Origin: Patescibacteria group bacterium
GTDB taxonomy: Bacteria; Patescibacteriota; Microgenomatia; Woykebacterales; 2-01-FULL-43-14
Assembly: GCA_023485445.1 (NCBI GenBank)
Contig: JAMCZT010000033.1
Location: 11,170 to 75,169 of the forward strand
Length of the DNA stretch: 64,000 nucleotides
Reading direction: 5' to 3'
This document shows positions 34,477 to 61,557 of the stretch, in pieces (the first letter of the stretch is position 1; every line of letters starts with the position of its first letter). The notes beneath the pieces are model-generated. The model searched no databases. It was not told where the DNA came from and saw only the letters and a program-made list of their open reading frames with translations. A program made the position numbers and the translations under genes.

Positions 34477-34492
34477 ACGTATTTTTTCAACC

Positions 34493-36950: not shown

Positions 36951-37320
36951 TGGTGGAGCTGAGGGGAATTGCACCCCTGTCCGAAAAAACGACCCCGAAG
37001 CGGAACTACAAGCTTAGTTGGTTGAAAAATTCCTCACTAACAAGCTCAACCAACAAAATTTGTCAGTGAGTAAGGTTGATAAAAGGTGGATAAAACCGGG
37101 GAAACCAACCCCAAGAAATCCATCCCGACTAGGGTCGCACCCTGACCACTCCGTCAGGAGAGAGTAATCAAGACGCCTACTTGCTGTTACGCAGTCGCGT
37201 AAGCATAAGCAGGAGAAAATGCTCTATTGGCATTTATAATTGTGGTAAAGTTTAACGGCTTTTTACCATGGCCGGCTTGCCCACTTTCAAAGTGCCTTCC
37301 CGTCGAAGCTAAACAGCCCC
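36951..37320 (-). ncRNA. ssrA: tmRNA (SsrA), one-piece
   Basis: Minus strand starts GGGGCUGUUUAGCUUCGACGGG and ends GGGGUGCAAUUCCCCUCAGCUCCACCA, with an acceptor stem containing G3:U. Candidate tag ORF: GCC AAU AGA GCA UUU UCU CCU GCU UAU GCU UAC GCG ACU GCG UAA. Confidence 0.9.
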
Positions 37321-39906: not shown

Positions 39907-39935
39907 AAAAACGGCCAAAAAATAAAAATCAGAAA

Positions 39936-40172
39936 TTAAAGAACCGACAAAGCGACTAGAAGCACTGCAACGGAACCGATCAAATGTAAATAAGCGATTA
40001 GCTTCAGGATAGGACAAAGATTCGTCCCCAAGACGCTGTTCATCAAACCAACTTGGCGAACCATTATCAAAGCAAAGCAGATGTAAAAAATTAAAAACAA
40101 GGAAACAATCGGCTTAACCAAAAGCTGGTAATTAGCTGTACTCACGATTGATGATAAGGAGAAGCTATCCAT
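39936..40172 (-). CDS. Hypothetical small membrane protein (78 aa, 2-3 TM)
   Basis: Tightly packed, 2 nt after the upstream stop. Strongly hydrophobic. Confidence 0.45.
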   Translation of the reverse strand: MDSFSLSSIVSTANYQLLVKPIVSLFLIFYICFALIMVRQVGLMNSVLGTNLCPILKLIAYLHLIGSVAVLLVALSVL

Positions 40173-42736: not shown

Positions 42737-43132
42737 GTGAAGATTATAAAAAAATTTACTATTCCTTTCATTTTAATTTCCTTTTTAGCATTTTTTTCCT
42801 TAAGTGGCTTTTCTACTACTTACGCTCAAAGGGACTGTAGTGGTCCTTTCGGCCCAGGAACCGAAACGGAACTTGGGTGCATTCCTAGAAATCCAGAGTC
42901 ACTTGCCCAATGGGGATTAAGGTTTGCGGTCGCAGTCGGGGGTGGTTTCGCTTTTTTACTTATTATTCTCGGCGCTTTCAAAATTTTAGTTAGTCAAGGA
43001 GACCCAAAAGCGTTGCAGGAGGGAAAGGATCAAATTACCAGCGCAATAATGGGTTTACTACTTATAATCTTTGCAGTCGTATTACTTCAATTTATAGGAG
43101 TTAGAGTCTTAGAATTACCGGGATGGAGCTAA
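42737..43132 (+). CDS. VirB2/TrbC-like T4SS pilin paralog P1 (divergent, Cys-containing N-domain)
   Basis: 131 aa, GTG start after GAGG. Signal peptide ..TTYAQ. Two TM helices flank FKILVSQGDPKALQEGKDQITSAIMGLLLII. Confidence 0.7.
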   Translation: MKIIKKFTIPFILISFLAFFSLSGFSTTYAQRDCSGPFGPGTETELGCIPRNPESLAQWGLRFAVAVGGGFAFLLIILGAFKILVSQGDPKALQEGKDQITSAIMGLLLIIFAVVLLQFIGVRVLELPGWS

Positions 43133-43134
43133 TA

Positions 43135-43488
43135 ATGTCCTATTTATTTTTAACTCTTCCAGGATTTCCAGCTAGACCACAGGATTGGTGGTGGAATAGA
43201 GGTAGAGATACAGTTAGCATTACCTCCCCTACTGGTTTAAAGCAAAACCAAATCGGCGACATCGTAAGCGAATTTATTCCGATTATTTTTGCGCTCGCGG
43301 GAATCGTCCTACTTGTTTACCTAATTATTGGAGGATTTAAATTTATTACTTCGGGTGGTGACCAAAAAGCACTTCAAAGTGCAAAAAACACCATTTCAAA
43401 TGCCGTCCTTGGATTTATCCTCGTTTTTGTCAGTTTTTGGTTACTTCAAATTATAAGCACTATCTTTAATGTAGGAGTAGGACTTTAA
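43135..43488 (+). CDS. VirB2/TrbC-like pilin paralog P2
   Basis: GGFKFITSGGDQKALQSAKNTISNAVLGFILV. Start at ATG 43135 (GGAG 6 nt upstream). Confidence 0.75.
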   Translation: MSYLFLTLPGFPARPQDWWWNRGRDTVSITSPTGLKQNQIGDIVSEFIPIIFALAGIVLLVYLIIGGFKFITSGGDQKALQSAKNTISNAVLGFILVFVSFWLLQIISTIFNVGVGL

Positions 43489-43497
43489 TTTAAGTTT

Positions 43498-43875
43498 ATG
43501 AAAAAAATATTTTTAACTATTACAGCAATTCTAATATCAGGAGCTCTCTTAAGTGTGGGGGCAACTCCAACCTACAGCTGGATAAGTATTGGTAACAATT
43601 TTGAACTTAATGGAAATCCGATAACCTCTTCTTTTACTTCCCTTGGTAGTTTAATCTCTGTCCTTCTTCAAGCTATTTTTACTATTGCTGGACTAACCGT
43701 AATTATCTTTTTCCTATTTGGTGGCATTAAATTTTTGACCTCTAGCGGTGACCAAAAGGCAATTCAAAGCGCAAAAGACACGCTGACAAACGCCTTTCTA
43801 GGTATTATAATAATATTTGTTAGCTATTGGGTAGTTCAAATAATTCAAACTATTACAGGAGTAAGCATTTTATAA
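43498..43875 (+). CDS. VirB2/TrbC-like pilin paralog P3
   Basis: Signal peptide, then GGIKFLTSSGDQKAIQSAKDTLTNAFLGIIII between two TM helices. Confidence 0.75.
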   Translation: MKKIFLTITAILISGALLSVGATPTYSWISIGNNFELNGNPITSSFTSLGSLISVLLQAIFTIAGLTVIIFFLFGGIKFLTSSGDQKAIQSAKDTLTNAFLGIIIIFVSYWVVQIIQTITGVSIL

Positions 43876-43884
43876 GAGGGTCTG

Positions 43885-44211
43885 ATGGCATCTCCAACTG
43901 ATTATTTAGGTAATATAACTACACCCTATACAGGTGACTATAAACCTGATGGTGGTTTAGGAAAGTTCGTTAACAATGCCTTTACTGCTGTTGTTACGGT
44001 TGCTGGTCTAGCGTTTCTGTTATACCTAATTGTAGGTGGCATTAAGTATCTAACTTCCGGGGGAGATTCTAAAGCGGCCCAAAGTGCAAGGGAAACGATC
44101 ACTACCGCCTTAATTGGTTTGGTCATTGTAACTGGCGTTTGGTTTGTCGCTTTAATTCTGGAAACCGTTTTAGGAATTAGTATCACTCATCCGGTATTTA
44201 CAGGACCGTAA
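43885..44211 (+). CDS. VirB2/TrbC-like pilin paralog P4
   Basis: GGIKYLTSGGDSKAAQSARETITTALIGLVIV. Near-identical core to P5. Confidence 0.75.
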   Translation: MASPTDYLGNITTPYTGDYKPDGGLGKFVNNAFTAVVTVAGLAFLLYLIVGGIKYLTSGGDSKAAQSARETITTALIGLVIVTGVWFVALILETVLGISITHPVFTGP

Positions 44212-44247
44212 GTAATTAGTTCTTTAGTCTTTTTGGAAAGAATTAAA

Positions 44248-44589
44248 ATGCGTATAGACCAAGTATTTGCAGCAAGTCAGTTTGACCCAGGTAGTCTAAC
44301 TAATCCGACAAAGTACGGAGATAACATTAGTGGGCTCGGAAAACTAATCAATAATGGTTTTTTTGCTGTAGTCACCATCGCTGGTCTGGCATTTCTAGCA
44401 TACTTAATTATGGGCGGTATTAAGTACCTTACGTCTGGAGGAGATTCTAAAGCGGCCCAGAGTGCGAGGGAAACTATTACCAACGCCTTGATCGGACTGG
44501 TAATCGTTACTTCTGTTTGGTTTATCGCTCTTATCATCCAAACTATACTGGGGATAAATATACTTGACCCAGAATTTATAGGACCATGA
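44248..44589 (+). CDS. VirB2/TrbC-like pilin paralog P5
   Basis: GGIKYLTSGGDSKAAQSARETITNALIGLVIV. Start at ATG 44248 (MRIDQVFAA), which parallels P6's MLIREVFAA. Confidence 0.75.
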   Translation: MRIDQVFAASQFDPGSLTNPTKYGDNISGLGKLINNGFFAVVTIAGLAFLAYLIMGGIKYLTSGGDSKAAQSARETITNALIGLVIVTSVWFIALIIQTILGINILDPEFIGP

Positions 44590-44627
44590 TTAATAAAGTA
44601 TATGAGTATTGTACTAGGCCATAAACA

Positions 44628-44987
44628 ATGTTAATTAGAGAAGTTTTTGCAGCTCAATCGGTCAAACCGGGTGGAATTATTAATCCGACCAATTATACAG
44701 ATAGTCCATCAGGGATTGGGAACCTCATCAGTAATTTAATTAGCGCAGCTACAGTTATAGCAGGTCTAATATTTCTTGCGTTTTTAATCGTTGGGGGGAT
44801 AAAGTATGCCACCAGCGGAGGCGATAAGGTAGCAGCAGAGTCAGCAAGAAATACGATTACTAACGCGTTGATCGGTCTAATTATTGTAGTCGCAGCTACC
44901 TTTATTGTAGCATTAGTCCAAGCTGTACTAGGAATAAACATACTTAGTCCTCTCTTTATTGGACCCCAGTGGGGAATTAATCCATGA
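44628..44987 (+). CDS. VirB2/TrbC-like pilin paralog P6
   Basis: GGIKYATSGGDKVAAESARNTITNALIGLIIV. Confidence 0.75.
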   Translation: MLIREVFAAQSVKPGGIINPTNYTDSPSGIGNLISNLISAATVIAGLIFLAFLIVGGIKYATSGGDKVAAESARNTITNALIGLIIVVAATFIVALVQAVLGINILSPLFIGPQWGINP

Positions 44988-45352
44988 AAACGTTACTTAC
45001 ATTAAACCCTGTAGATAAAGTAGAATTTAATGTCTCTAACTCCGCTGTCTCCTACCCAGACCCATCAAGGGGTGGTTTGGCTTTACTAATAGGAAATCTT
45101 TGGACCACGGCTGTCATCATAGGTGGTTTATTATTTTTAATTTATCTTCTCATTGGTGGGATACAATGGATAACTAGTGGGGGGGATAAAGCCGGCTTAG
45201 AAAGCGCAAGAGGCAAGATAGTTAATGCCTTAATTGGACTTGGAATTTTGGTTGCTAGTTTTGCAATAATTAAAATCGTAGAAACCTTATTTGGTATTAA
45301 AATTCTTGATTTAAACATACCAGCACCAATAGGTATAACAAATCCACATTAA
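44984..45352 (+). CDS. VirB2/TrbC-like pilin paralog P7
   Basis: GGIQWITSGGDKAGLESARGKIVNALIGLGIL. 4-nt overlap with P6. Confidence 0.75.
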   Translation: MKTLLTLNPVDKVEFNVSNSAVSYPDPSRGGLALLIGNLWTTAVIIGGLLFLIYLLIGGIQWITSGGDKAGLESARGKIVNALIGLGILVASFAIIKIVETLFGIKILDLNIPAPIGITNPH

Positions 45353-45375
45353 TTCCTTCATGAACAGGAGAAATA

Positions 45376-45762
45376 ATGTTTAAAAAGGTAGTCAGCGCTT
45401 TAGTAATATCACTAAGCTCAATATTATTGACCCATAAGGCCAATGCCCAAGGTATAATCAACCTAGGCAATGTAGAAGCTACCTCGCCTAAATCATTCAC
45501 CGACCTGGGACAATTGTTGACTGTCCTTCTTCAAGCTGTTATCATACTAGGTGGTTTGCTTTTTTTCATTTATCTTCTTGTTGGCGGTCTGCAATGGATA
45601 ACAAGCGGTGGGGATAAGGCTAGTCTAGAATCGGCGAGAAATAGAATAACAAATGCGTTAATAGGCTTAGTTATCCTTGTTGGTGCTTTTAGCATTATAA
45701 AAATAATCGAAACTGTCTTTGGTATAAGTATCATTTCAGGAATCAAAATTCCTGGCCCATAA
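45376..45762 (+). CDS. VirB2/TrbC-like pilin paralog P8
   Basis: Signal peptide ..THKANAQG. GGLQWITSGGDKASLESARNRITNALIGLVIL. Confidence 0.75.
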   Translation: MFKKVVSALVISLSSILLTHKANAQGIINLGNVEATSPKSFTDLGQLLTVLLQAVIILGGLLFFIYLLVGGLQWITSGGDKASLESARNRITNALIGLVILVGAFSIIKIIETVFGISIISGIKIPGP

Positions 45763-45782
45763 GCAAAGAAAGGGGGTGAATT

Positions 45783-46199
45783 ATGAAACTTCCAAAAGTC
45801 GTCAGGGCAGCCATCTCAGCCGTATCTATACCTTATCTTGCAACAATGGCGGTAACTGCCGCCCTAGCCCAAGGTACCGTCAGCCAAGTCCCAAATACGG
45901 TTACTCCTTTCTCTGATCTTGGCCAACTAATTTCTAATGTAATCGTACTGGTCATCTTTTTTGCTGCGTTATTAGTTTTCATCTTTCTCCTTATCGGAGG
46001 TCTGCAATGGATAACCAGCGGTGGGGATAAAGCCGCCGCCCAAGCAGCGAGAGACCGCATTACCGCAGCCTTGGTTGGTCTGATTATCGTCGTCGGTGCT
46101 TTCGCGATCATGTTGATTATCGAACGAGTCTTCGGAGTCAGTGTTCTCGGAGGATTTAAGCCGCCAACAGCTCAAAATACAGTCGGTAAGTTGAACTAA
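45783..46199 (+). CDS. VirB2/TrbC-like pilin paralog P9
   Basis: Signal peptide ..AALAQG. GGLQWITSGGDKAAAQAARDRITAALVGLIIV. Confidence 0.75.
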   Translation: MKLPKVVRAAISAVSIPYLATMAVTAALAQGTVSQVPNTVTPFSDLGQLISNVIVLVIFFAALLVFIFLLIGGLQWITSGGDKAAAQAARDRITAALVGLIIVVGAFAIMLIIERVFGVSVLGGFKPPTAQNTVGKLN

Positions 46200-50185: not shown

Positions 50186-52039
50186 TTACTCCACATAGAA
50201 AGCTGTCCCCTTAAAGTAATTTGTATATGGTCCTCTAGTAGGTTGCGTCTGGATTATTTGTGTTTTACTTCCCGAAACGTATGGAAAGTCTTTGTAATCT
50301 CCTCCGGAAGGATCCAATATTAAGTGGCTAGGATTCGCTGGATCGGTTATCCAATGACCATCATAACCATCATCATTAATAATCAGGGATTTAGCATACT
50401 CTCCATCAAAACCTTTGATACCTACAACTACCATAAAATGGCCGCCTCGAGCTGGATCATTGTACTCCACCTCTTTATTGTTGTAATTTCCAACATTTAT
50501 TACAACTGGGTGACCATCTTTCAAGGCATTGTAAATACCCGCAGGGGAATTCTCAACCACTACCATCTTCTTCCCCCAGAGAGCCGGCCCACTACTAAGC
50601 TGGCCAACCGTTAGGTTGCCCCAACTGTAAATCCCCGCGTCACTTAACTTTCTGGCTACGACGGATAAACGATCGGAGACACCTGCGTAATTTAAGGCCA
50701 TTGTTAACGAAGCAGGACCACAAGCTGTCCATTGGACGTTAGGTTTGTCCGTATCATCTAAGCTAGCGTATTCATGAATATAAGGCACATTCGCGATTAT
50801 TACATCAGGACCAGCATTAATAAGTACAGTCGCCCAGGCTAAAGCTGTCTTTTTGGGGTCAGGTGGGTCAGAGTAAAACCCTTCCACACTAGCTTGATTA
50901 GAGATTGAGTCTTTATCGGTAAGATTATCGTTAGTGGAGACATCGATTCTAAAGCTTACCGACGATTCCAACTTATCCAGCTTAAAACACATCTTACCAG
51001 TTGTTGGTACTCCGCCACACCAGTATTTTGCAAATACTTGCGGGTCGTAGGAAGGAGGTGGGGAACCAGAATCATAAAATTTCACCCCTGCTGGATCATA
51101 AAAAGAAAAAGTACTGCTATTAAGTAAATTGATTCCACTAGTAAAGGTATCTTTAATGACAACGTTTGTTAGCTTATTATCAGCCTTTGGCGCCGCTGTA
51201 ATAGTATAAGATAAGAGTTTCTTTCCCGTTACCTGAAGCGTATTTACCCCGTCTACTGTCACAGTTTTAGTGATAGAAACGTAGTTGGATGTTCCCAGCG
51301 GCGCCCCAGCTGGCGTAGACTCAAAATCGCGCATTCCGACCATAATAACAATCACGATAAATACTGCTAATAAGATGACAAGGATAATAACCAAAAGGAT
51401 AATTAATAGCACACTGCTGATCGCTGAGATAACTCCCCCACCAACAGCTGCCGTACCACCTCCTGCAGCAGCCGCTCCTCCACCGGCGGCAGCACCACCT
51501 GCCCCACTAATCGCCCCTCCTCCCACCATGCCGATAAATCTAGCTGCAAGTCCGCCGAGCTTAGGCAAAACACCTTTTATTAAATTGCTTATTCCCTTAC
51601 TAAAAATATTTTTACCTAGACTAGAAATAGCCCGTCCAAGAAGACTATTTGGCGCTAGCCTAGAAACTGTTTGGGAGAGAAAGTTGCCAGCTTGAGGAAG
51701 GAGGTTTTTAAAAAAATTGCCTACTTTCCGTAGCGGACCAAATCTTTGAATTCTCTGAATATTTTGGGGGGACTGTGGGTGCTGATCTTGAATTTTATCC
51801 TGCAGCTCTTGCTGATCTTTATCCGAATCTTTCTTCTTTTCTTTGCTCCCTTCATCGTCTTGAGCATCACTGCCACTAGAGCTTTTTCTAGCCGTAAGGG
51901 GTATTTTCTTCGCCTTAGGAAAAGCTACCTCTAAAATTAAGGAGAGGAGTCTTCTTAAAGGTGCAAAAAGTCTCGTTAGGCTAAAAATAGAAGGTCTATT
52001 TTGTTGCTGTGGATTTCCGTATCGATAAACTTCTGCCAT
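50186..52039 (-). CDS. Membrane protein with a Gly/Ala-rich segment, TM, Ig-like middle part and a C-terminal C39-like (papain-fold) cysteine peptidase domain
   Basis: ..VQWTACGPASLTMALNYAGV.. (catalytic Cys context of Peptidase_C39_2-type domains) and ..RGGHFMVVVGI.. (His). Start taken at ATG 52039 (track start is TTG 52060). Confidence 0.6.
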   Translation of the reverse strand: MAEVYRYGNPQQQNRPSIFSLTRLFAPLRRLLSLILEVAFPKAKKIPLTARKSSSGSDAQDDEGSKEKKKDSDKDQQELQDKIQDQHPQSPQNIQRIQRFGPLRKVGNFFKNLLPQAGNFLSQTVSRLAPNSLLGRAISSLGKNIFSKGISNLIKGVLPKLGGLAARFIGMVGGGAISGAGGAAAGGGAAAAGGGTAAVGGGVISAISSVLLIILLVIILVILLAVFIVIVIMVGMRDFESTPAGAPLGTSNYVSITKTVTVDGVNTLQVTGKKLLSYTITAAPKADNKLTNVVIKDTFTSGINLLNSSTFSFYDPAGVKFYDSGSPPPSYDPQVFAKYWCGGVPTTGKMCFKLDKLESSVSFRIDVSTNDNLTDKDSISNQASVEGFYSDPPDPKKTALAWATVLINAGPDVIIANVPYIHEYASLDDTDKPNVQWTACGPASLTMALNYAGVSDRLSVVARKLSDAGIYSWGNLTVGQLSSGPALWGKKMVVVENSPAGIYNALKDGHPVVINVGNYNNKEVEYNDPARGGHFMVVVGIKGFDGEYAKSLIINDDGYDGHWITDPANPSHLILDPSGGDYKDFPYVSGSKTQIIQTQPTRGPYTNYFKGTAFYVE

Positions 52040-52044
52040 AAAGG

Positions 52045-52212
52045 CTACCAGCAAGGGCAAACTGCTAACAATTGGTTAAGTAAAATATACAAAAAAGTTA
52101 TCACTGATGCTATCATCAGGAAGAGCCAGTTGAAGAAAATTGGCGACACTTTTGCCAAAAAAGAAAATAAATAGTTCTTTTCTTTTTTATTATCTTGAGC
52201 AAGCATTGGCAT
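52045..52212 (-). CDS. Possible leaderless 55-aa membrane mini-protein upstream of the C39-like gene
   Basis: Own translation: MPMLAQDNKKEKNYLFSFLAKVSPIFFNWLFLMIASVITFLYILLNQLLAVCPCW*. TTGATT, 17 nt, TATACT (52227-52222), then 9 nt to the ATG. The stop is 5 nt before ATG 52039. Confidence 0.35.
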   Translation of the reverse strand: MPMLAQDNKKEKNYLFSFLAKVSPIFFNWLFLMIASVITFLYILLNQLLAVCPCW

Positions 52213-52277: not shown

Positions 52278-54047
52278 ATGAATTCTGTCCAAAGTCTTTT
52301 TATCAATAAGAAATATTTTCTAAAAAAGCTACTAATTTTTAGTTTAGTCACTTCCTTTTTACTAAATACTTCTTCATTATTTGCTTTGGCCGCCGAAAAA
52401 AAGTTCTCTGATCCTACTCCTGTTAAAAGTAGTTCAATTTCTCAAACGACATTTTCTTCAACAGATTTTTCTAGCCAAAACCAATCTCCAACCGAGATAC
52501 TCTCTCCTGTCTCAAAAGATTACAAAACTAATTTATCCCCCAACGATCCCTCAAAGTCTTACGTTACCCAAGAAGCAGTGGACACCAGAGTTTTTTTGGG
52601 ACCAATAGCTGCCCCCTGGATGATCGCTGATGAATTTAAAAAATTCGAAAAAGCAGTGGAGGATTCGAAGCAAAGCCTCTTAAAGTTCATTCCTGACATT
52701 ATTACTACAATAGTAAAAACGGTAGACGAATCTATGATGCCTAGTAATATTGCGACTTGCCTATGGGGAGAGTTGGAAAAAAAGACAGGGGCAAATCCAA
52801 CTGCATGTGCTCCCCAGGCGACCAACGAACAAACAAATCTTGGAGGAAAGTCTAAAGCCACTTACAACCCACCTTCCGGGTTAATCGCTCTTACTGCCAC
52901 AACGATTGATCAAATTCACCAAAGCGGTCCTCAAATGATCAATACCCAAGATTATCTCGCTTATATCAACCCCTTCCAGCCAAAAGATGCTTACGCTCAA
53001 GGAATTGGAAGAGACCGGCTTAATGTTGCTGCCCTGGAAATTTGGGGAGTCTTGAGAAATGTTTCTTATGCTTTCTTAGTTTTAGTTTTAGTGGTTGTCG
53101 GATTTATGGTCATGTTTAGGGCTAAAATGGATCCAAGGACGACCGTGAGCTTAATAAATTCTTTACCAAGAGTAGTGTTGGTCCTTATCTTGATCACCTT
53201 TAGTTTCCCGATAGGGGCATTGGCAATCGATCTCATCGGATTACTCTTAAATCTAGTCGGCTGTGGGGTGAATCTATACTGTAGCTATGGTAGTTACAAT
53301 CAAAACGTCTTTCTTTTTATGACGGGAGGAGTAATCCTCACTTCTGTTTTAGCCGCCTTCCAGATTCCAACTATTCCAGGTATTGGGTTCCTGGCTGTTA
53401 TCATTTTACTCTTTATTCTTTTACTAGTAACATTTGTCATCATCGCCAGAATCGGGATCGCTTTTATTACAGAGTGGATTTCGCTCTTTTTCACTATTGT
53501 TGCCGCTCCCCTTTATTTACTCGGGGGATCCTTGCCGGGAAGCTCCTCCATAAAAGGCTGGTTTAAGAGACTCTTGGCTCCAGTCCTTTGTATCGTCTCA
53601 ATGTACACGATGGTCGCTATTGCTGGTAAGTTTAGCTCTACGGCCATTGACTCAAGCTTTAGCTCAATGCGTTTTATCGCCACAGGGACATCGGGAATAG
53701 GATTTAATATCCCCCAGTTTATTCCCTCACCAAATTTAACGGGGTCAAGTATTCCTTTGACCCCACCCTTATTCAACGATCTAGTATCCCTGGGAATACT
53801 TCTCTTTACACCGGCAATCTGTACAAATATCAAGAAAGCTCTCGACGTTGTCATGTCCGACCAAGGCTCTATTAATCCGATGGAGATGTCACGCGATGCC
53901 ACGAGGGCGAGATCTACCGCCATTTCAGAGCTCGGTACTAGAATCAAAAGGACGGAGTATAACAACCTTTGGGGTGATCAAACAGGGCGGCCTGGTTGGC
54001 AGGTGGCGAAATTTATTGGGCAGTTGCTAGGGGGACACGGTCCATAA
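52278..54047 (+). CDS. Polytopic inner-membrane protein, VirB6/TrbL-like by size, topology and context
   Basis: 589 aa. Signal peptide, ~230-aa Ser/Thr/Pro-rich ectodomain, at least 6 TM helices, and a C-terminal cytoplasmic tail. No sequence motif could be verified. Confidence 0.45.
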   Translation: MNSVQSLFINKKYFLKKLLIFSLVTSFLLNTSSLFALAAEKKFSDPTPVKSSSISQTTFSSTDFSSQNQSPTEILSPVSKDYKTNLSPNDPSKSYVTQEAVDTRVFLGPIAAPWMIADEFKKFEKAVEDSKQSLLKFIPDIITTIVKTVDESMMPSNIATCLWGELEKKTGANPTACAPQATNEQTNLGGKSKATYNPPSGLIALTATTIDQIHQSGPQMINTQDYLAYINPFQPKDAYAQGIGRDRLNVAALEIWGVLRNVSYAFLVLVLVVVGFMVMFRAKMDPRTTVSLINSLPRVVLVLILITFSFPIGALAIDLIGLLLNLVGCGVNLYCSYGSYNQNVFLFMTGGVILTSVLAAFQIPTIPGIGFLAVIILLFILLLVTFVIIARIGIAFITEWISLFFTIVAAPLYLLGGSLPGSSSIKGWFKRLLAPVLCIVSMYTMVAIAGKFSSTAIDSSFSSMRFIATGTSGIGFNIPQFIPSPNLTGSSIPLTPPLFNDLVSLGILLFTPAICTNIKKALDVVMSDQGSINPMEMSRDATRARSTAISELGTRIKRTEYNNLWGDQTGRPGWQVAKFIGQLLGGHGP

Positions 54048-54053
54048 AAACAT

Positions 54054-54088
54054 AAAAAAGGGAAGCAACTTTTTTAGTTACTTCCCTT
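54054..54088 (-). terminator. Hairpin terminator after the 550-aa orphan gene
   Basis: AAGGGAAG (54058-54065) / CTTCCCTT (54081-54088). On the minus strand it is followed by a U-run (plus-strand AAAAAA at 54054-54059). Confidence 0.5.
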
Positions 54089-54105
54089 AATGCGTACGCT
54101 AACTC

Positions 54106-55758
54106 CTATCTTACAAGTCCCTTCGCCTCTTCTTCTAAGTTGATCCTATTACGTGGTCTTTTCTCTACCTCCTCCCACGCGCGTTTTAATGCGGCACGTG
54201 TGATGGCTGATTGATCACTGACTACATCTAGTATCCGAGGGTCAATCTCCATCAATTTTATATCTTCTACTAACGCTTCGAGCCTAGCCGTGGTATAGTA
54301 AAGCAACCCAAAGGATTCTTCCGGACTGAAGGTTTTTTTAGGACTAAACGCTTCCGGATAAATCCCCTTTGCCCGAATCATATCTGCGTGATGCTTTACT
54401 TCGTCTTCCCCACCCCTCGTGCCACGATATGCCTTGCTCATCTCATCGTAGACTATCGCGATAGACTTTTTTTGGTTATCGACCTGGGTTCCAAGCCGCT
54501 TAATTGCAGCCTGTTCTTCCTCCTCAGTTCCAATGCCACGCGCATAGCTACCACTCATCCTAAGATTTACGACGAGTGAATCCGTGATCTCTCTTGAGTG
54601 GACCACCATCTCGTCGACCATGCGCCTAGTCAAACCATCCGCCCTTCGAAGCCATTTCCTCATTCTGGCTCTCCATAGGGCTAGATCACGAACCCACCCG
54701 TAGTAGGTTGCCACATACGCGGCAAGAGCTTCCGGTGTCTGGACTTTAGGTAATACAGGAGCCTCGTCAATGTTTAGGCTAGTGCCTAGAAAGCCATAAC
54801 GTTCGAAAAACTCCTCTATCATCCTTCGAGTCAGCATCTTTCTCTCCCACAAATCCTCCCAACAAGCAGCATGTAGCCAATATACAGGCTCGATCAGTGT
54901 TCCACGCAGCTTTGCTCCTAAAACACGATACCAGTTGCCATCGGGTTTGGGTACCGTCCCAAAGTTTGGCCCCCGCCTTCCGTGCCGATTTAGCACTGAG
55001 CCCAGAAATGTAGTTGTCAGTGCGAACTCGGGTAGATGAGCGCATCGCGCAATTGACTCCGCCGTGTGTCCCGCCGTGAGATAGTTGCAAATCTCATTGA
55101 AATCAAGTATCTCCCTGTCTAGGGGAAGAGCATTCCCTAAGAGCAGACCAATGGTCTTGATTTCCTTGTACTCGCCGTCGCTGGTTTTGTACAACCACCC
55201 GTCAAGACGGTAAGCCACCATCGCCATTAAAACGTGCTTCCAAGCTTCGGGGTCTTCCCAGATACCTTGGAAAGCTGGGTTTGCGGTCATACCGATTGTT
55301 TGGAGGGGTTTTGAGAAGTCTTTCTCGAGCCGGTCTAGGAGTTCTGCGGAATTTGAGCCCGTGAACTCCCCCATCGTGTTCTTAACTCCCCCTAAAAAAA
55401 GACCTCCTCTAAGTTCCTTGATTGGTCCCGCCGCATCCAAGAGTGCCCCTCTAACAGAGACGCCAGCAAAAGTGGGCGTCTTACCCCAGGGCGTGTACTT
55501 CACCGGGAAATACTGCGACTGATAATGGTCTGTCGCCCAGTGCTGAATCTGTTCAGCCTTCGGCGCCCGAGATCTAAAGAGCTCAACATATTTGTGGGTC
55601 CCCTCAGGGTAAACCTCTAGCTCTCTCTCCAGCTCCGCTAGTTTAACCTTTGCTTGATCGAGACTCATTCCCCTCTTAGTGAAATTAAACGGGTCACAGT
55701 TTTCGATCAAGCTTACCAACTTCAGCATGTCCATCGGATCGGCGATTTCTGTTGCCAT
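54106..55758 (-). CDS. Hypothetical soluble 550-aa protein, compositionally distinct. No domain recognised
   Basis: Long uninterrupted ORF with AGAGGAGAGAG upstream and no TM segments. Hand counts of two 60-nt lines (54901, 55201) give 53-55% G+C, versus 30-38% in lines from neighbouring genes (43501, 53101). Confidence 0.7.
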   Translation of the reverse strand: MATEIADPMDMLKLVSLIENCDPFNFTKRGMSLDQAKVKLAELERELEVYPEGTHKYVELFRSRAPKAEQIQHWATDHYQSQYFPVKYTPWGKTPTFAGVSVRGALLDAAGPIKELRGGLFLGGVKNTMGEFTGSNSAELLDRLEKDFSKPLQTIGMTANPAFQGIWEDPEAWKHVLMAMVAYRLDGWLYKTSDGEYKEIKTIGLLLGNALPLDREILDFNEICNYLTAGHTAESIARCAHLPEFALTTTFLGSVLNRHGRRGPNFGTVPKPDGNWYRVLGAKLRGTLIEPVYWLHAACWEDLWERKMLTRRMIEEFFERYGFLGTSLNIDEAPVLPKVQTPEALAAYVATYYGWVRDLALWRARMRKWLRRADGLTRRMVDEMVVHSREITDSLVVNLRMSGSYARGIGTEEEEQAAIKRLGTQVDNQKKSIAIVYDEMSKAYRGTRGGEDEVKHHADMIRAKGIYPEAFSPKKTFSPEESFGLLYYTTARLEALVEDIKLMEIDPRILDVVSDQSAITRAALKRAWEEVEKRPRNRINLEEEAKGLVR

Positions 55759-56366
55759 TTTTCTCTCTCCTCTTTCTATTCTTTCTATACTTTATTTTCG
55801 GGAAGTTGAAATTTGCCTCAACCGCAGGCTTCTCTTCTTGCAGCAAGGCAAATTGCCTTACCACAAAGGAGAGAGCCCAACGACGAGGAGTAGCTTCCCT
55901 TCCCAGGAAGCCGAAGAGAGCCAACGACGAAATTACTAATTACGCAATTATTTGATCAATTTTTCGTTAAAGCTCTTTTCGACCCCCTGGTTAATGTCTT
56001 AAAATTATCTTCACTTGTTAAAGTTCGTGGCTATTATTCTACCATAAATTAGCCTGAATGTCAAACCTATAATTTATGCAAATAGTCGCGCGACTACTCT
56101 AATATATATCGCTTCGACGAAGTCGAAGGAAGATATAGTACCCTTAACACACGGTTGCCAGTGATCCAGATTGATCCGGTTGCATTATTACTAAACATGC
56201 CTAATAATAGTTAAAGATAACAATGGAAAGAGTTAGAGGGACGAAATTTAGGATCGAGATCGCTTTTAAAAAATCCTCCTTATACTCAGGTCAAACTGAG
56301 CTCTTTTCTGTTGTTATCCCCATAATTGAATTTTCAATTTAAACTAACTTAAGTCAAAAGGCAAAA

Positions 56367-58520
56367 ATGCAACAGCATCCTGTCCCACAAAATATCATGG
56401 GGGTAGAGTTCCAGCTGATTGGCAACATGACCATCCGCCAGTTTGCCTATGTCGGTTCTGGTGCCTTAATCGCCTGGCTTTCTCTCACCGCCCCACTTCC
56501 CTTCCTTTTGAAATGGACACTTGTTCTAGGAGCGGGGTTTGGCGGTCTGGCCTTCGCCTTTCTGCCGGTTAACGATATTCCCTTAGACCGCTGGGTCACC
56601 ATTTTCTTCAACGCTATCTATGCCCCGACAAAGCGGGTTTGGCGAAAGGAAGCTAAAAAACTTGATTTTCTTTACCCAAGCTATTCGGCCTATCTCCAAA
56701 AACAAACTCCCACCTCAATCCCTACTTCCAACCGATTGAAGCTAGAACAGTACCTGGGAACTTTTCAACCCATCGTTCGGAAGAACGAGCTAGATTTAGC
56801 AGAAGAAAGCTACCTCTCAAGTTTAAATTTTTCGATTCTTCCACCTTCCACTCTCACTCCTCCAACCCAAATAGCCCCTCTGGCGGCCATGCCAGAAGAA
56901 ACGAGCAGAAGCGTTGTGGAAAAAGCCGCGGCCGTGGAAGCTAATCAGTTCGCTTCTGAGATTAGCTTCAAGCCAGTCGTCACAATCCGCCTACCAGACA
57001 AAAGCGTTTACGTCAAACCAGTTTCAAACGTCCGTTTGAGGTCGCTGCATCGGCTTTCCGCCCTGGGAGGTACGATTGTCCTGCCTATTCGCGGCGAGCG
57101 AATTTTGGAAATCCCGGAAGAAATCAAAAAGCAGTTTCGGAGTCATCCTCTTGAAAGCAGCAATCCTCCGCTTTCTCTTCGATCATCGCTTGACATCTCG
57201 CCGGAAATATCCTTTACTCCTCACGTTCCGCCCAAACCCATTTTTTCAACTCGAAAGGAGCCTATGGAAATCTTTAAAGGAAACCAACAGTATCAAATGG
57301 GAAAAGTCCCAGAGCCAGGAGCTCCTGCGCCAAAGGCGGAGCCTATCTTTCCTACCCAACCGATAAAAGAGCCAGTACCAGCGCCAATAAAAACGCCAAT
57401 TGAGGCGGTCTCTTCAACAGTTCCTCTAGTTAGTCCGCCGTCAGAAACGAGGGAGGCGCCAGAAGAGACCAAAATTCCAGCGCTAGAACCTTCTTTCGCA
57501 CCAAAACCTGAGTCTACACTTATCGAACCTTCCATAATTAAAACCCCAGAAGAAGTAGAACCAGACGTCTCCGAAACAATCCACCCAGCAGTTCATTTAC
57601 CGGAAATTAAGGCCAACCCGAGCGTCGCTCCTGAGATATCCCTAAAGGCAGAAGTTAAACCCACAGCACCTCAACCGCCCGCACCCTTGCCGTATGACGT
57701 GGATAAAGAGATCCTCAAACAGAGGCTGGAAGAAATGTCCAAGAAAATCACTTCGGCGAACCAAGAAAGGGAAAACCTCCTCTCAGAGCTGACCAAAGTA
57801 AACCATCAAATTGCCCAGGCTCAAGCTTCCGCAGCCTCCACAAAGGAGCTGGAAAAGCTCTCAAATGACTATCGAACCCAGCTAGAACGCGTGCGAACGG
57901 AACGGGAAACTCTCTTTTCCCAGTTAACCACGTTGCAAAGCCAAGTCAAGGCCTTCCAAGAAAGCCTGACCAAATCTAAAACCGAAAAGGAGCAAACCCA
58001 AAAAGCCCTTGCTGATTTTCAAGCCAAACTGGCCCAAGCCGAATCGGAAAAGCAACAAGCCATCGAACGAGCTGCCAAAATGCAGGCCTTGCTAGACGAT
58101 CTGGCCAAACAAAAACAGGCGGAAGCAAAAGAAGCAAAAAAAGACACGCCTGTTGTTTCGGCAGCTAATCTCACAACAGAAGAAAAAACTCCTGTCAAGC
58201 CATTAATCAAGGTCGTCGAGCCGAAAAAAGCGGAGGGCAGAATGGCTCCCGCGATCACTTCTGTTCCAAATGTGATAAACGGAATAGTAAAAGACAAGAA
58301 TGGCCTACTCGTTTCAGATGTGATTATCGTCGTCAAAGACGTCGATGACGAACCAGTAAGAGCCTTAAAGACGAATAAAATCGGCCAATTTGCTATCTCC
58401 ACTCCCCTTCCAAATGGAACTTACACAATGGAGTTAGAGAAAGATGGTTACGAATTTGATATAATAGAAATAGTTGTCGCGGGCGAGATCCTTGCCCCGA
58501 TCGAGATCAGAGCAAAGTAA
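56367..58520 (+). CDS. PrgI/VirB3-like membrane domain fused to a Pro-rich linker, coiled coil and a C-terminal carboxypeptidase-regulatory-like beta-sandwich
   Basis: 717 aa. N-terminal PVPQNIMGVEFQLIGNMTIRQFAYVGSGALIAWL plus two TM helices (PrgI-family pattern). ~250-aa P/E/S-rich segment. Q/E/K coiled coil. C-terminal NGIVKDKNGLLVSDVIIVVKD...TNKIGQFAIS.LPNGTYTMELEKDGYEF. Confidence 0.6.
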   Translation: MQQHPVPQNIMGVEFQLIGNMTIRQFAYVGSGALIAWLSLTAPLPFLLKWTLVLGAGFGGLAFAFLPVNDIPLDRWVTIFFNAIYAPTKRVWRKEAKKLDFLYPSYSAYLQKQTPTSIPTSNRLKLEQYLGTFQPIVRKNELDLAEESYLSSLNFSILPPSTLTPPTQIAPLAAMPEETSRSVVEKAAAVEANQFASEISFKPVVTIRLPDKSVYVKPVSNVRLRSLHRLSALGGTIVLPIRGERILEIPEEIKKQFRSHPLESSNPPLSLRSSLDISPEISFTPHVPPKPIFSTRKEPMEIFKGNQQYQMGKVPEPGAPAPKAEPIFPTQPIKEPVPAPIKTPIEAVSSTVPLVSPPSETREAPEETKIPALEPSFAPKPESTLIEPSIIKTPEEVEPDVSETIHPAVHLPEIKANPSVAPEISLKAEVKPTAPQPPAPLPYDVDKEILKQRLEEMSKKITSANQERENLLSELTKVNHQIAQAQASAASTKELEKLSNDYRTQLERVRTERETLFSQLTTLQSQVKAFQESLTKSKTEKEQTQKALADFQAKLAQAESEKQQAIERAAKMQALLDDLAKQKQAEAKEAKKDTPVVSAANLTTEEKTPVKPLIKVVEPKKAEGRMAPAITSVPNVINGIVKDKNGLLVSDVIIVVKDVDDEPVRALKTNKIGQFAISTPLPNGTYTMELEKDGYEFDIIEIVVAGEILAPIEIRAK

Positions 58521-58530: not shown

Positions 58531-59298
58531 TTGCCAGATAAAATTATCGCCACCACCCAAGAACATCTAGACATTGAAGATATCCGAAACGATATCGTAG
58601 TTCTAAAGTCCGGTAACGCCAGTATCGTCCTCCAGACTAACGCCGTCAATTTTGACCTTCTTTCCGAGCAAGAACAGGACGCGATGATCTTCGCTTATGC
58701 CGGATTGCTTAATTCACTCTCTTTTCCTATCCAAGTAATCGTCCGCTCAAAGCTAATGGACATTAGCAGCTACATTGAAAAACTTGAAACGGTTAAGAAG
58801 GGTCAGGCCAACCAAAGGCTAGCGGAAGAAATCGGCCGCTACCAAGAATTCGTTCGAGAGCTTATCGCTAAAAACAACGTTTTGGATAAACGTTTTTACA
58901 TCGTCATCCCTTATTTTGAAGCCCGAATGTCCTCTCTCAGTCCGATCGGCGCTCTCACTGGTAAAAAGACTGTCTATTTTGACAAATGGCAGCTTTTGGA
59001 AAAAGCCAAGGTCGCCTTGCAGCCAAAAAGAGACCACATTATCAAGCAGCTTTCTAGGATCGGTGTCAAGGCCAAGCAGGTAACCACCCAAGAACTAGTT
59101 GAACTTTTTTATGATATTTATAACCCAACTGTGGCCCGGGAACAAAAAGTCGCCTTAAAGACCAGCGACTACACTACGCCAGTGGTTGAACCGGCAATCG
59201 AACCGGCGGGGGTAGTTGAAAACGCTAAACCGCAGCCAATCCCAAATAATCAAACTGAAAATCCGAGGCCTGCCGAGGAAGAAACTAACCTAACTTAG
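58531..59298 (+). CDS. T4SS-cluster protein resembling a stand-alone VirB4 N-terminal domain
   Basis: TTG start 5 nt after AAGGAG. IEDIRNDIVVLKSGNASIVLQTNAVNFDLLSEQEQDAMIFAYAGLLNSLSFPIQVIVRS...KRFYIVIPYFE parallels the N-terminus of the next gene (VKDIIAPPALEVDFDFVKIGNMFYRTLFV...LSFFYYPV...ERFFQFAFYITIPAE). Confidence 0.45.
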   Translation: MPDKIIATTQEHLDIEDIRNDIVVLKSGNASIVLQTNAVNFDLLSEQEQDAMIFAYAGLLNSLSFPIQVIVRSKLMDISSYIEKLETVKKGQANQRLAEEIGRYQEFVRELIAKNNVLDKRFYIVIPYFEARMSSLSPIGALTGKKTVYFDKWQLLEKAKVALQPKRDHIIKQLSRIGVKAKQVTTQELVELFYDIYNPTVAREQKVALKTSDYTTPVVEPAIEPAGVVENAKPQPIPNNQTENPRPAEEETNLT

Positions 59299-59310: not shown

Positions 59311-61557
59311 ATGAAGTTTCGAAGCCCGTTCGAATTAATAAAACCAAAGAAACCAGCCGAAAACGAAACGCCAAGCATCGTTGATGCCATCGGTCAGGGA
59401 ATGGTCGACGTCAAGGATATCATCGCCCCACCAGCGTTGGAGGTCGATTTTGATTTTGTTAAAATCGGGAACATGTTTTACCGAACCCTCTTTGTTTCCG
59501 GCTACCCGCGGTTTGTCGGAGCAAACTGGTTGGCCTCGGTAATTAATTTCGACCACACCCTTGACCTTTCTTTCTTTTATTATCCGGTGGAATCAAAGGG
59601 GGTTTTGGACGACTTAAAACGAAAAATTGCCGAGATGGAAGCTACAATCCAATCGGATGTAGAAAAAGGCCGCGTAGTCAATCCGGCCATCGAAGTCGCC
59701 CTCGAAGACGCACACGCCCTGCAAGAACAGCTCGTCAAAGGAACCGAAAGGTTTTTCCAGTTTGCTTTTTACATCACTATTCCGGCGGAAAGCCTGGAAG
59801 AGCTTAACGCCGTGACCAAAGAAGTCGAAGCAACCCTCGGAGCCTTGATGATCATCTCCAAGCATGCCACTCTTCAGATGGAGCAAGCTTTCCAATCAAC
59901 CATCCCCACCTGTTCTGACAAGCTTTACATTACTCGAAATATGGACACCACTTCGCTGGCAACCACTTTTCCCTTTACTTCTTCTGAATTGACCGCCAAC
60001 GAAGGAATTTTATACGGGATAAACGAACACAACGGCAGTTTAGTTATCTTTGACCGTTTCGCCATGGAAAACGCCAACGCCGTCGTTTTTGCCAAATCCG
60101 GTTCGGGTAAATCCTACCTAGTTAAGCTAGAGGCGCTGCGGTCACTAATGTTTGGCGCGGAAATTATCGTCATCGACCCCGAATCGGAATATAGAGTCTT
60201 AGCTGAAGCGATCGGCGGAGAATACATCAGCTTTTCTTTTGATTCCCCCGCGAAAATTAATCCTTTTGACCTTTCTGGGGTTTACGAAGAAGGGGAAAAT
60301 GAGCTTGGCTTAAAGATTCTTTCCTTACACGCCTTGTTTAGGGTTATGTTCGGCGAGCTTTCTGCCATGGAAGACGCCTTGCTCGATCGGGCTTTGATCA
60401 TGACTTACAAACTTAAAGGCATCACCCCCGATCCAGCCACACAAAAGAACGAACCGCCTTTGATGGAAGATTTGTATAAAGTTTTGATGGGCATGGAGGA
60501 GCTTGAAGCCCGGGGGATGGCCGACCGGGTCGAAAAATTCATCAAAGGCTCAATGTCGGGTATCTTTGACCAGCGCACCACCGTCAATCTTCGAAACACC
60601 TTTACGGTCTTTTCTATCCGAGATTTGGAAGACCAACTTCGTCCAATCGCGATGTTTATCATCCTCGACTACATCTGGACTCGAGTGAAAAGGGAGCAAA
60701 AGAGGCGGTTGCTAATCGTTGATGAGGCATGGTACCTGATGAAATACCCCGACAGCGCTACTTTCCTCTACTCAATCGCAAAAAGGGCTAGAAAATACTA
60801 TCTGGGGCTAACGACCATCACCCAGGATGTGGAGGATTTCTTAGCTGGCGATTACGGAAAGGCTATCGTGACCAACTCTTCCATCCAAATCCTTTTGAAA
60901 CAGTCCCCGGCCGCAATCGATAAGGTTGCCCAGGTCTTTTACCTCTCCCAAGGAGAAAAGCACTTGCTTTTGGCGGCAGAGGTCGGTGAAGGCCTTTTCT
61001 TTGCGGGAGCCAACCACGTCGCCATTCGGGTCCAAGCCGCACCGCACGAGCACCGCCTGATCACCACAAATCCGGCCGAACTAGAAAAGATTGCCAAGGA
61101 AGCCCAAGCGGCCAAACTCGCCCAGCAGCACCCCCTACCAGCGCAAACACCAATGAAAGTGGCGGAAAGTTTTCCCGCCCAGCCTACCTCGGAAGTCTCT
61201 AAACCAAGCCAATTCCAGCCAACACCGGTCGTCGAAAGCAATGTTAGCTCTTGGCCCCAACCAAAACCTGCTGGAGAAGCGGTCGTCCCTGTCCCAACGA
61301 TTGTCGAACCATTACCAGAAAAGGCTACCCCCCAAACCGTTACGACTGGACCCGTTCAAGTTCCTCAAAACCAGCCGTTCCAACCACCGTTCTCATCGCC
61401 AAGACCAGCCTCAGCGAGCGAACCTGTTGCTCCAAACTCAAATCAAAGCAAACCCATACCCTTCCAGGGAACTATTCGCCCAGCTTCCGAAGTCCAGTCG
61501 CTTTCCGACGAACCAGAAAGCACCACAACCTCGATTTCCTTAGGCAAGAAGTGGTAG
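59311..61557 (+). CDS. virB4: VirB4/TrbE/TraC-like T4SS ATPase with a ~170-aa Pro/Gln-rich C-terminal tail
   Basis: 748 aa. Walker A VVFAKSGSGKSYLVK, Walker B RRLLIVDEAWYLM, ..GLTTITQDVEDF.. (sensor/arginine-finger region). The low-complexity tail starts at about residue 580. Confidence 0.85.
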   Translation: MKFRSPFELIKPKKPAENETPSIVDAIGQGMVDVKDIIAPPALEVDFDFVKIGNMFYRTLFVSGYPRFVGANWLASVINFDHTLDLSFFYYPVESKGVLDDLKRKIAEMEATIQSDVEKGRVVNPAIEVALEDAHALQEQLVKGTERFFQFAFYITIPAESLEELNAVTKEVEATLGALMIISKHATLQMEQAFQSTIPTCSDKLYITRNMDTTSLATTFPFTSSELTANEGILYGINEHNGSLVIFDRFAMENANAVVFAKSGSGKSYLVKLEALRSLMFGAEIIVIDPESEYRVLAEAIGGEYISFSFDSPAKINPFDLSGVYEEGENELGLKILSLHALFRVMFGELSAMEDALLDRALIMTYKLKGITPDPATQKNEPPLMEDLYKVLMGMEELEARGMADRVEKFIKGSMSGIFDQRTTVNLRNTFTVFSIRDLEDQLRPIAMFIILDYIWTRVKREQKRRLLIVDEAWYLMKYPDSATFLYSIAKRARKYYLGLTTITQDVEDFLAGDYGKAIVTNSSIQILLKQSPAAIDKVAQVFYLSQGEKHLLLAAEVGEGLFFAGANHVAIRVQAAPHEHRLITTNPAELEKIAKEAQAAKLAQQHPLPAQTPMKVAESFPAQPTSEVSKPSQFQPTPVVESNVSSWPQPKPAGEAVVPVPTIVEPLPEKATPQTVTTGPVQVPQNQPFQPPFSSPRPASASEPVAPNSNQSKPIPFQGTIRPASEVQSLSDEPESTTTSISLGKKW

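Follow-up and report, generated by a model that had tools for sequence, protein, structure and literature searches.

ORF550 and the cluster that carries it

The window analysed here, a 64-kb stretch of a Patescibacteria genome (64,000 nucleotides of contig JAMCZT010000033.1), carries the gene cluster of a type IV secretion system (T4SS), and the subject of this analysis is a gene inside that cluster, ORF550, for which no family could be found. ORF550 is an intact 550-codon open reading frame (ORF) with an ATG start on the minus strand (54106–55758 in the ORF list). It is flanked by a VirB6-like gene (52278–54047, plus strand) and a PrgI-like gene (56367–58520, plus strand), and below we call its position directly after virB6 the slot and the gene in it the slot gene. 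The stop codons of ORF550 and virB6 are convergent and 58 nt apart, and the gap between them holds an intrinsic-terminator-like hairpin (54058–54088, minus strand; 13 pairs, then a T-run), identified by a terminator scan and in the sequence itself. At the other end of the gene, a purine-rich Shine-Dalgarno (SD) sequence, GAGGAGAGAG, is located 4 nt 5′ of the ATG (55763–55772, minus strand). A first-pass annotation of the window had described a clean, long minus-strand ORF between the VirB6-like and PrgI-like genes, with a purine-rich SD and a terminator hairpin of its own, and this description was confirmed. ORF550 is a real gene. A protein identical to it is found on three assemblies, which are not necessarily independent samples, and both of its junctions are repeated on a 2.6-kb ENA contig (L002). 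Its G+C content (GC) by codon position is coding-like (first position, GC1, 0.559; second, GC2, 0.416; third, GC3, 0.526).

The ORF550 protein is a soluble orphan of 550 residues. The maximum over 19-residue Kyte-Doolittle windows is 0.87, which leaves no transmembrane (TM) segment, and a sequence scan found neither a Walker A motif nor a signal peptide; the absence of a TM segment and a Walker motif had been noted before. No internal repeats were found. AlphaFold models were unusable (predicted local distance difference test, pLDDT, 35.6 for the full protein and 36.7 for residues 80–340), and DSSP applied to the AlphaFold model gave a mostly helical protein with low confidence. Relative to the other proteins of the window, Trp (2.4%), Arg (7.6%) and Met (3.1%) are enriched (z 1.5–2.2). 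The protein had been called rich in Trp, Arg and Glu; the first two residues bear this out, while Glu is barely raised (z 0.7).

No match to Pfam, NCBIfam, PHROGs, PADLOC or PDB sequences was obtained for ORF550, apart from one NCBIfam match of 9 bits that carries no meaning. When 5.8 billion proteins were searched through a word index, ORF550 found nothing but itself, as a hypothetical protein of a Patescibacteria metagenome-assembled genome (MAG), and an exhaustive HMMER scan of 1.84 billion representatives also returned only ORF550 itself. The same 5.8 billion proteins were searched with a two-sequence alignment of ORF550 and the slot protein of its closest sampled relative (L083, see below), which recovered the query only, and a profile search of the PDB with this alignment gave chance matches only (E ≥ 0.25). 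Peptide-pattern scans of genomes and metagenomes found no relatives of ORF550, tblastn against plasmids and phages gave no match, and tblastn against 80 related loci gave nothing below E 0.4. Similarly, neither a profile of the conserved block described below nor the L083 slot protein detected further members among all 1584 ORFs of the related loci. ORF550 is therefore unannotatable, with no family, structure or homolog in the libraries and billions of proteins searched, and the earlier judgement of a "genuinely unknown" gene holds. Two more large ORFs of the window have no Pfam match (E up to 1e-4), one of 728 residues (37831–40017, minus strand) and one of 709 residues (29977–32106, plus strand).

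The machine genes around ORF550 are recognisable. The VirB6-like product is a polytopic membrane protein with multiple TM segments and a weak TrbC/VirB2 Pfam match, and homologs of it stand upstream of PrgI in 20 related loci. The PrgI (VirB3)-like gene is the first of a divergent operon. Its 717-residue product matches Pfam PrgI and CarboxypepD_reg, with the PrgI domain at residues 5–91, a Pro/Glu-rich, coiled-coil-like middle and a CarboxypepD_reg-like domain at the C-terminus. It is unusually long: its relatives mostly have ~320–370 residues, and canonical VirB3 has ~100. The operon continues with a TraC/TrsD-like gene (58531–59298, plus strand; PF26593 TraC-like match on the called 255-residue product and a weak TraC_F_IV match) and a VirB4-type ATPase (59311–61557, plus strand; Pfam P-loop_TraG, AAA_10 and CagE_TrbE_VirB), which is 57–74% identical to its counterparts in the 80 related loci. 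On a 30.8-kb Logan contig (L001), the T4SS cluster adjoins recF-dnaN-dnaA. No VirD4/TcpA-type coupling protein (T4CP) was found among the large ORFs of the 64-kb window. Further upstream, nine tandem pilin-sized ORFs of 108–138 residues (42737–46199, plus strand) lie directly 5′ of a PMT-like gene; genes called at the pilin array of L001 carry PF18895 (T4SS_pilin), which fits the divergent VirB2-like pilin arrays described for Microgenomatia. A 624-residue protein that combines a Gly/Ala-rich region with a TM segment in its middle and a C39-like peptidase domain at its C-terminus (50186–52060, minus strand; 35% identical in L083) may be the cell-wall-remodelling, VirB1-analogous component of the cluster.

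The first-pass annotation had regarded ORF550 as compositionally foreign, with 53–55% GC against ~30–38% in adjacent genes. These values were not reproduced: the GC content is 0.500 for ORF550, 0.423 for the VirB6-like gene, 0.482 for the PrgI-like gene and 0.497 for VirB4. ORF550 is nominally the GC-richest gene of the window (gene mean 0.418, sd 0.036) and has the most atypical codon usage (z –2.8), an outlier of z about 2–2.8 in a test of foreign composition that drew on 64 kb of this genome. However, the five genes that follow it in codon atypicality are dnaN, PrgI, VirB6, VirB4 and recF, which makes the trend a regional gradient that includes housekeeping genes. At third codon positions, VirB4 (0.551) exceeds ORF550. 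Amino-acid composition (+0.043) and synonymous choice (+0.038) each contribute about half of the GC excess of ORF550, and the synonymous excess of VirB4 (+0.052), the largest in the window, lies above that of ORF550. What stands of the claim is the rank of ORF550 as the top GC and codon outlier; its foreignness is put in doubt by the trend that VirB4, PrgI, dnaN and recF share. Across the window, the segment 54000–64000, which contains ORF550, PrgI, the TrsD-like gene, VirB4, recF and dnaN, has a GC content of 0.45–0.50, compared to ~0.40 elsewhere; origin proximity and expression level are possibilities for its cause.

The closest sampled relative and the region upstream of ORF550

Among 5.8 billion proteins, the best match to the VirB6-like protein of the window (P0003) is only 45% identical, and the lineage is sparsely sampled. 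The contig of P0003, L083, is the closest sampled relative. Its gene order matches that of the window, with a pilin array, a minus-strand PMT gene, a pilin, genes of 569 and 202 residues, a minus-strand C39 peptidase, a plus-strand VirB6 and, in the slot, a minus-strand gene of 609 residues whose product has no Pfam match. ORF550 and this 609-residue protein have one clearly conserved block in common, which spans codons 84–185 of ORF550 (55204–55509, minus strand; W-G-x-T-x-TFAGV ... D-x-AGP-x-K ... NPA-x-G-x-W-x-D). BLASTP aligned residues 84–185 of ORF550 with residues 89–181 of the L083 protein at 35% identity over 103 residues (pairwise E 2e-7), and in a shuffle test the block scored z 11.9 (0/300 shuffles). 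A second colinear region was detected by phmmer (336–412 in ORF550, 378–455 in the L083 protein), and the rest of the colinear alignment was weakly above chance (z 3.1, 2/300). About 74% of the aligned residues differ between the two proteins, with the ORF intact in both. Taken by position and alignment, the L083 gene is best regarded as a diverged positional ortholog of ORF550; at the matching place in the nearest relative, where the presence or absence of the gene had been proposed as a check, the gene is thus not absent.

The identities of neighbouring proteins between the window and L083 put this divergence in proportion. Over the full length they are 62% for PMT, 67% for the pilin, 40% for p586, 35% for C39 and 45% for VirB6; within a cluster that already evolves fast, ORF550 therefore evolves fastest. 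Among the long genes of its locus, the L083 slot gene has the highest GC content (GC 0.545, GC3 0.618; locus GC 0.467). Since it has the same GC excess as ORF550, this excess would be inherited and not a mark of un-ameliorated DNA from a recent transfer. No integrase was found near ORF550 and no meaningful repeats in its flanks. The nearest tRNA or tmRNA genes are at 36–37 kb, with none within 17 kb of ORF550; they belong to a minus-strand cluster (33743–37320) with six tRNA genes, four for Ser and two for Arg, and one tmRNA gene (tag ANRAFSPAYAYATA); the cluster lies ~17–20 kb from ORF550 and is unrelated to it.

ORF550 and the prgI-like operon are separated by a divergent intergenic region of 608 bp (55759–56366), which was examined by structure and inverted-repeat statistics. 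The region is more structured than its shuffles (minimum free energy, MFE, z –4.2 and –4.4 for the two strands, about –4.3) and contains 12 7-mer inverted repeats against 4.0 ± 2.7 expected, a number reached in 4/300 shuffles; the palindrome-rich spacer of ~600 bp reported earlier was thus borne out. On the minus strand, ~280 nt 5′ of the ATG, the spacer carries a predicted sigma-70-type promoter with an extended –10 element (56036–56065; TTGACA, 17 nt, TGgTAGAAT), which agrees with the consensus at 11/12 positions plus the TG and is unique in the window. The corresponding 30 nt of L083 (14504–14533) are 83% identical, the 17-nt spacer being nearly identical.

Between this promoter and the SD, ~84 nt of leader are 70% identical between the window and L083 (13655–13735) and comprise two stem-loops, in which the stems are kept and the loops vary. 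Hairpin 1 (55892–55912, minus strand; GGCTTCC / GGAAGCT), supported by the alignment and RNAalifold, has a kept stem and a variable loop in L083. Hairpin 2 (55827–55878, minus strand), unique in the window, has the core GGTAAGGC...GCCTTGCTGC, and next to it lies a CUCUCUCCUU tract whose sequence is complementary to that of the SD. The SD itself is kept in L083, as AAGGAGAGAGAGG. The RNAalifold consensus of the leader contains 2 compensatory pairs and has an energy of –40.35 kcal/mol. When the ~270-nt leader is folded (MFE z –4.1), the conserved CUCUCUCCUU tract is paired with the SD in the MFE structure, which suggests, from two sequences only, that the tract masks the SD translationally. The promoter and the leader are conserved although the proteins encoded downstream have almost lost similarity, and the two elements together may be a new cis-regulatory leader.

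Other readings of the spacer were considered. A known riboswitch or small RNA was ruled out by an Rfam scan of 53900–56500 (E up to 1), which gave no match, and a replication origin by the presence of a single near-consensus DnaA box. No convincing coding frame for a small conserved leader ORF was found: one plus-strand frame is open in both sequences (38% identity over 26 residues), but it is the stems that are conserved and the loops that vary. The conserved pattern of the leader was not found in a scan of metagenomes. L083 has a GC-rich 104-residue ORF between the promoter and the slot gene (13962–14276, minus strand), for which tblastn found no counterpart in the window (E >2). DnaA-box-like 9-mers (TTATCCACA, ≤1 mismatch) are more frequent in the whole window than expected (29 compared to 13.4 ± 3.7; for example at 44549, 45609, 46022, 47271 and 56314). 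One variant, TTATCCCCA, is found repeatedly within the pilin array and near it, and the boxes are not clustered in the ORF550 spacer.

The slot after virB6 in related loci

The gene content of the slot was compared across 80 species-representative loci, fetched through their VirB4 proteins. In all 20 loci with a detectable VirB6-like gene upstream of PrgI, the next gene is a minus-strand ORF of 379–1337 residues convergent with virB6, usually 3–65 nt from the virB6 stop. In 10 of these 20 it is the only gene of at least 100 residues before PrgI, as in the window. The pattern is repeated in L083, L084, L085 and the contig of P0007, which were reached via VirB6 homologs, and sizes of slot proteins overall range four-fold, from 379 to 1505 residues. 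Those scanned gave no significant Pfam family and two weak sub-threshold DUF matches. All are hydrophilic and without TM segments, and all but one are net-acidic; Trp, Arg and Glu are generally high (Trp 0.9–3.3%). Their sequences nevertheless differ so much that clustering at E 1e-4 left 22 clusters for 24 slot proteins. In L086 and L087, prgI directly follows virB6 without a slot gene, and VirB6, PrgI, TrsD and VirB4 are intact; the slot gene is therefore accessory and not a core part of the machine.

Slot-protein similarity was then set against VirB4 identity in 16 genomes with a slot gene, 10 of which have that gene alone there. The Spearman correlation was –0.11 (not significant) for the slot protein, compared to 0.62 for VirB6 and 0.69 for PrgI. 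Individual pairs illustrate this lack of coupling. L040 and L042, with VirB4 89% identical, have only faint colinear matches between their slot proteins, and L057 and L068 (VirB4 81%) have no slot similarity, whereas L053 and L068 (VirB4 72%) have full-length slot homologs (24% over 566 residues, E 1e-31). Either the rate of divergence in the slot thus varies greatly, or its gene is replaced from time to time by one from a pool of variants. The pair of window and L083 argues for recent vertical descent; over longer timescales, replacement appears possible.

Several loci deviate in their arrangement. In two of those closest by VirB4 (about 71%), a row of three small minus-strand ORFs takes the place of the single large gene upstream of PrgI: in L006 the row begins directly behind virB6 (1129–3695; 379, 147 and 149 residues), and in L003 it is found at 1608–3296 (278, 125 and 120 residues). 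A slot gene in pieces or in decay may explain them, or else frameshifts introduced by assembly. In L020, L024, L027, L028 and L030, a minus-strand T4CP of the VirD4/TrwB type is head-to-head with prgI (for example L020 5562–7757), and in the L020 lineage a separate gene of 1209 residues without a family match still follows virB6. L011 and L021 have a ClpB/ClpC-like ATPase directly upstream of prgI. Many contigs with the cluster (L005, L007, L010, L013, L022 and others) are titled "uncultured Gammaproteobacteria" or "Pseudomonadales", which looks like a systematic mislabelling of those MAGs.

Possible roles and comparison with known systems

A number of specific identities were considered for ORF550 and rejected. 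It is not a coupling protein (VirD4/TcpA) or a cryptic ATPase, as it has no Walker A motif, P-loop Pfam match or TM segment. A conjugative relaxase was dismissed because ORF550 has no HxH motif, none is conserved in the slot proteins and there is no family match. A core MPF-FATA membrane part (VirB8/PrgL or VirB1-like) is contradicted by the lack of a TM segment, signal peptide or domain and by the missing gene in L086 and L087. For a polymorphic toxin/immunity module, there is no toxin domain and no small ORF downstream, where 58 nt separate the gene from the virB6 stop, despite the N-proximal position of the conserved block. A known defence system was discarded for want of a PADLOC match.

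Features expected of a secreted substrate were examined next to these. ORF550 is encoded within the T4SS cluster, as expected of a T4SS substrate, and its slot is filled in every one of the 20 related loci. Its last 30 residues have a net charge of +3, whereas the whole protein has –3. Among 19 proteins from slots with a single gene, the last 30 residues are net-basic in 17 (mean +1.95, compared to –0.54 in 184 soluble acidic control proteins from the same loci; Mann-Whitney p ~1e-6, or ~1e-5 without two related pairs), and the N-terminal 30 residues of slot proteins average –2.2. This trend toward a basic C-terminus is suggestive only: it is statistical and comes with no defined motif.

From these results we conclude that ORF550 is very probably a native, fast-evolving slot gene and not a foreign one, and we lean slightly towards a functional link with the T4SS. 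For its identity as a whole, we tentatively favour, with just under even confidence, a hypervariable accessory gene of the Microgenomatia-type Patescibacteria T4SS cluster that is possibly a translocated substrate; translocation as such we consider possible but somewhat unlikely. On this view, ORF550 is this genome's version of the slot gene, chromosomally inherited, directly downstream of and convergent with virB6 and, in this genome, head-to-head with the prgI-trsD-virB4 operon. Its transcription would start at its own extended –10 promoter and pass through a structured leader of ~270 nt, in which the CUCUCUCCUU tract could mask the SD, and the protein would be made in the cytoplasm. It would work with the T4SS as a lineage-specific, host-facing factor, in that case most likely as a translocated substrate or effector, with the sequence in the slot driven by diversifying selection or replacement.

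Several points weigh against this interpretation. Support for secretion of ORF550 or for an interaction with the T4SS is circumstantial: hypervariability, variable presence of the gene, solubility and the trend toward a basic C-terminus agree with the secreted or translocated substrate that the first-pass annotation had offered as its other possibility. A basic tail is present in only 1 of 5 proteins from slots with several genes, and the trend is weakened once these five are added (18/24 overall); the charge test was also designed after the tail of ORF550 had been seen to be basic. In classical systems it is the coupling protein that reads C-terminal signals, and no T4CP is encoded in the 64-kb window. 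The unusable AlphaFold models give no structural clue. Orphan status is not rare in this genome, as the two other large Pfam-less genes of the window illustrate. C39, p586 and VirB6 are also fast, and on sequence comparison ORF550 appears as the extreme of a continuum and not as a separate class. Lastly, the family, the leader structure and the promoter rest on two sequences with minimal covariation.

The alternatives differ in whether they concern the origin of ORF550 or its function. A recent horizontal cargo gene of foreign composition, inserted in the cluster, as the first-pass annotation had proposed, was suggested by the highest GC content and most atypical codons of the window and by standard searches that find no homologs in related genomes; the similarity of slot proteins off the phylogeny could also reflect replacement over longer timescales. 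However, the GC excess recurs in the L083 positional ortholog, promoter and leader are conserved, VirB4, dnaN and recF are atypical as well, half of the excess derives from amino-acid content, and the gene lies only 58 nt from virB6 across a shared terminator. Signs of mobility are missing too: no tRNA within 17 kb, integrase, flanking repeats, or plasmid or phage match. With the slot filled in 20/20 loci, the proposal is largely refuted for a recent event and very improbable overall. We give hardly any credence to a non-functional or decaying ORF, whether a chance ORF or the remnant of a pseudogene. The lack of homologs and of a confident predicted fold would agree with it, but 550 stop-free codons at 50% GC have by our estimate a chance of roughly e^-26 in random sequence, codon positions are coding-like, and L083 has an intact ORF of similar length that keeps SD, promoter and leader despite the ~74% residue divergence.

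With regard to function, ORF550 could be a non-secreted cytoplasmic accessory of the T4SS that binds to VirB4, TrsD or VirB6 as an adaptor, chaperone, assembly factor or regulator, perhaps in place of the missing coupling protein, and evolves fast by co-evolution with VirB6 and the pilins. A soluble, mostly helical protein (by the low-confidence DSSP assignment) would suit this role, as would the tight convergence with virB6 in 20/20 loci, the divergence from the prgI operon, the fast evolution of VirB6 itself and the lack of a T4CP in the window, where the single slot gene takes the place that the T4CP of the L020 group occupies head-to-head with prgI. But an adaptor bound to the machine would normally have a phylogeny like that of its partners, a pattern from which slot similarity departs (rho –0.11, compared to 0.62–0.69 for VirB6 and PrgI); the four-fold size range, the missing gene in L086 and L087 despite intact VirB6, PrgI, TrsD and VirB4, and the absence of Walker A, which speaks against a cryptic ATPase, make this role rather unlikely. 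Still a little less probable is a fast-evolving passenger in a permissive gap of the cluster, unrelated to secretion (for example a defence, regulatory or structural protein particular to one lineage that gains from expression near the origin). ORF550 is a separate transcription unit because it has its own promoter, leader and terminator, it has no domain in common with T4SS components, orphan genes are common in this genome and the content of the slot turns over independently of the machine genes, all of which a passenger would explain. It would not readily explain why 20/20 loci keep a large soluble opposite-strand gene after virB6 while the gene order reshuffles, which is hard for a neutral gap, or why slot proteins are physically alike (no TM segment, acidic overall and at the N-terminus, mostly basic at the C-terminus); the defence role in particular found no PADLOC match.

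The hypervariable accessory gene, as the favoured interpretation, can be extended to a more specific proposal, which we regard as distinctly doubtful: the position after virB6 in T4SS clusters of Microgenomatia would be a dedicated hypervariable effector slot, from which one large soluble protein per lineage, with an acidic N-terminus and a basic C-terminus, is injected into a bacterial host by an essential, relaxase-less T4SS, the sequence in the slot changing with the hosts through diversifying selection or the exchange of cassettes. If so, ORF550, with its conserved promoter and a leader that masks the SD, would be one of the earliest specific candidates for a substrate of this system. More generally, a conserved position that always holds a large, soluble, lineage-specific protein narrows the search for substrates or host-specificity factors to a few testable candidates. 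It also illustrates that orphan status can reflect extreme divergence in a syntenic slot rather than foreign origin, and that horizontal transfer cannot be read from local GC outliers and missing homologs where a lineage evolves fast and is sparsely sampled, a caution that is useful even if the slot gene is unrelated to secretion. Denser sampling of the lineage is most likely to unlock the function.

In Agrobacterium, the VirB/D4 substrates VirE2, VirE3 and VirF have positively charged C-terminal signals. Like them, slot proteins are soluble, encoded with the secretion genes, lineage-specific and fast-evolving, and 18/24 have basic tails. ORF550, however, has no similarity to these substrates in sequence, no receptor of the VirD4 type is encoded in the window, the charge of the tails is a statistical trend and not a defined motif, and translocation is only a candidate property. 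The X-Tfes of the Xanthomonas interbacterial T4SS carry a conserved XVIPCD domain at the C-terminus, and their cognate immunity genes are encoded next to them. The concept of variable proteins delivered into other bacteria fits an epibiotic lifestyle; in contrast to the X-Tfes, slot proteins have no common domain (22 clusters of 24), ORF550 has no adjacent immunity-like ORF, and the conserved part of ORF550 and its L083 counterpart is N-proximal and not C-terminal. The VirD4/TrwB T4CP of L020, L024, L027, L028 and L030 occupies, on the minus strand and head-to-head with prgI, the place that ORF550 has here, but slot proteins lack the Walker A motif, P-loop Pfam match and N-terminal TM helices of a T4CP.

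The make-up of such T4SS clusters and their nearness to dnaA have already been described (PMC12102498). The window has the same set as the MPF-FATA-like cluster beside dnaA/dnaN in Patescibacteria (candidate phyla radiation, CPR) (Quinonero-Coronel et al., 2025, PMC12102498; Wang et al., 2023, PMC10633639), namely a VirB2-like pilin array, VirB6-like, PrgI/VirB3, TrsD/TraC-like and VirB4 genes by recF-dnaN-dnaA, and, like the described clusters, it has no relaxase and no coupling protein nearby. The T4SS of Saccharibacteria is essential for epibiotic growth in the only species tested genetically, and Patescibacteria T4SSs, without a recognisable relaxase or coupling protein, "may instead export proteins" (PMC10633639); a later review lists a VirD4-like component in the Saccharibacteria T4SS locus. 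This literature fits a role in protein export but names no substrate. In the sections of the two papers cited here (PMC12102498 and PMC10633639), recognisable components are catalogued, genes without a family are left uncoloured, and a slot of large unrelated soluble proteins after virB6 is not described. The VirB2-like pilin arrays of these clusters have an average identity of 25%, which is thought to reflect host adaptation (PMC12102498). Pilins differ from slot proteins in forming one recognisable Pfam family (PF18895) of membrane or secreted proteins, whereas slot proteins are large, soluble and mutually unalignable. Like the pilin arrays, however, the slot after virB6 is another hypervariable element of the same locus.

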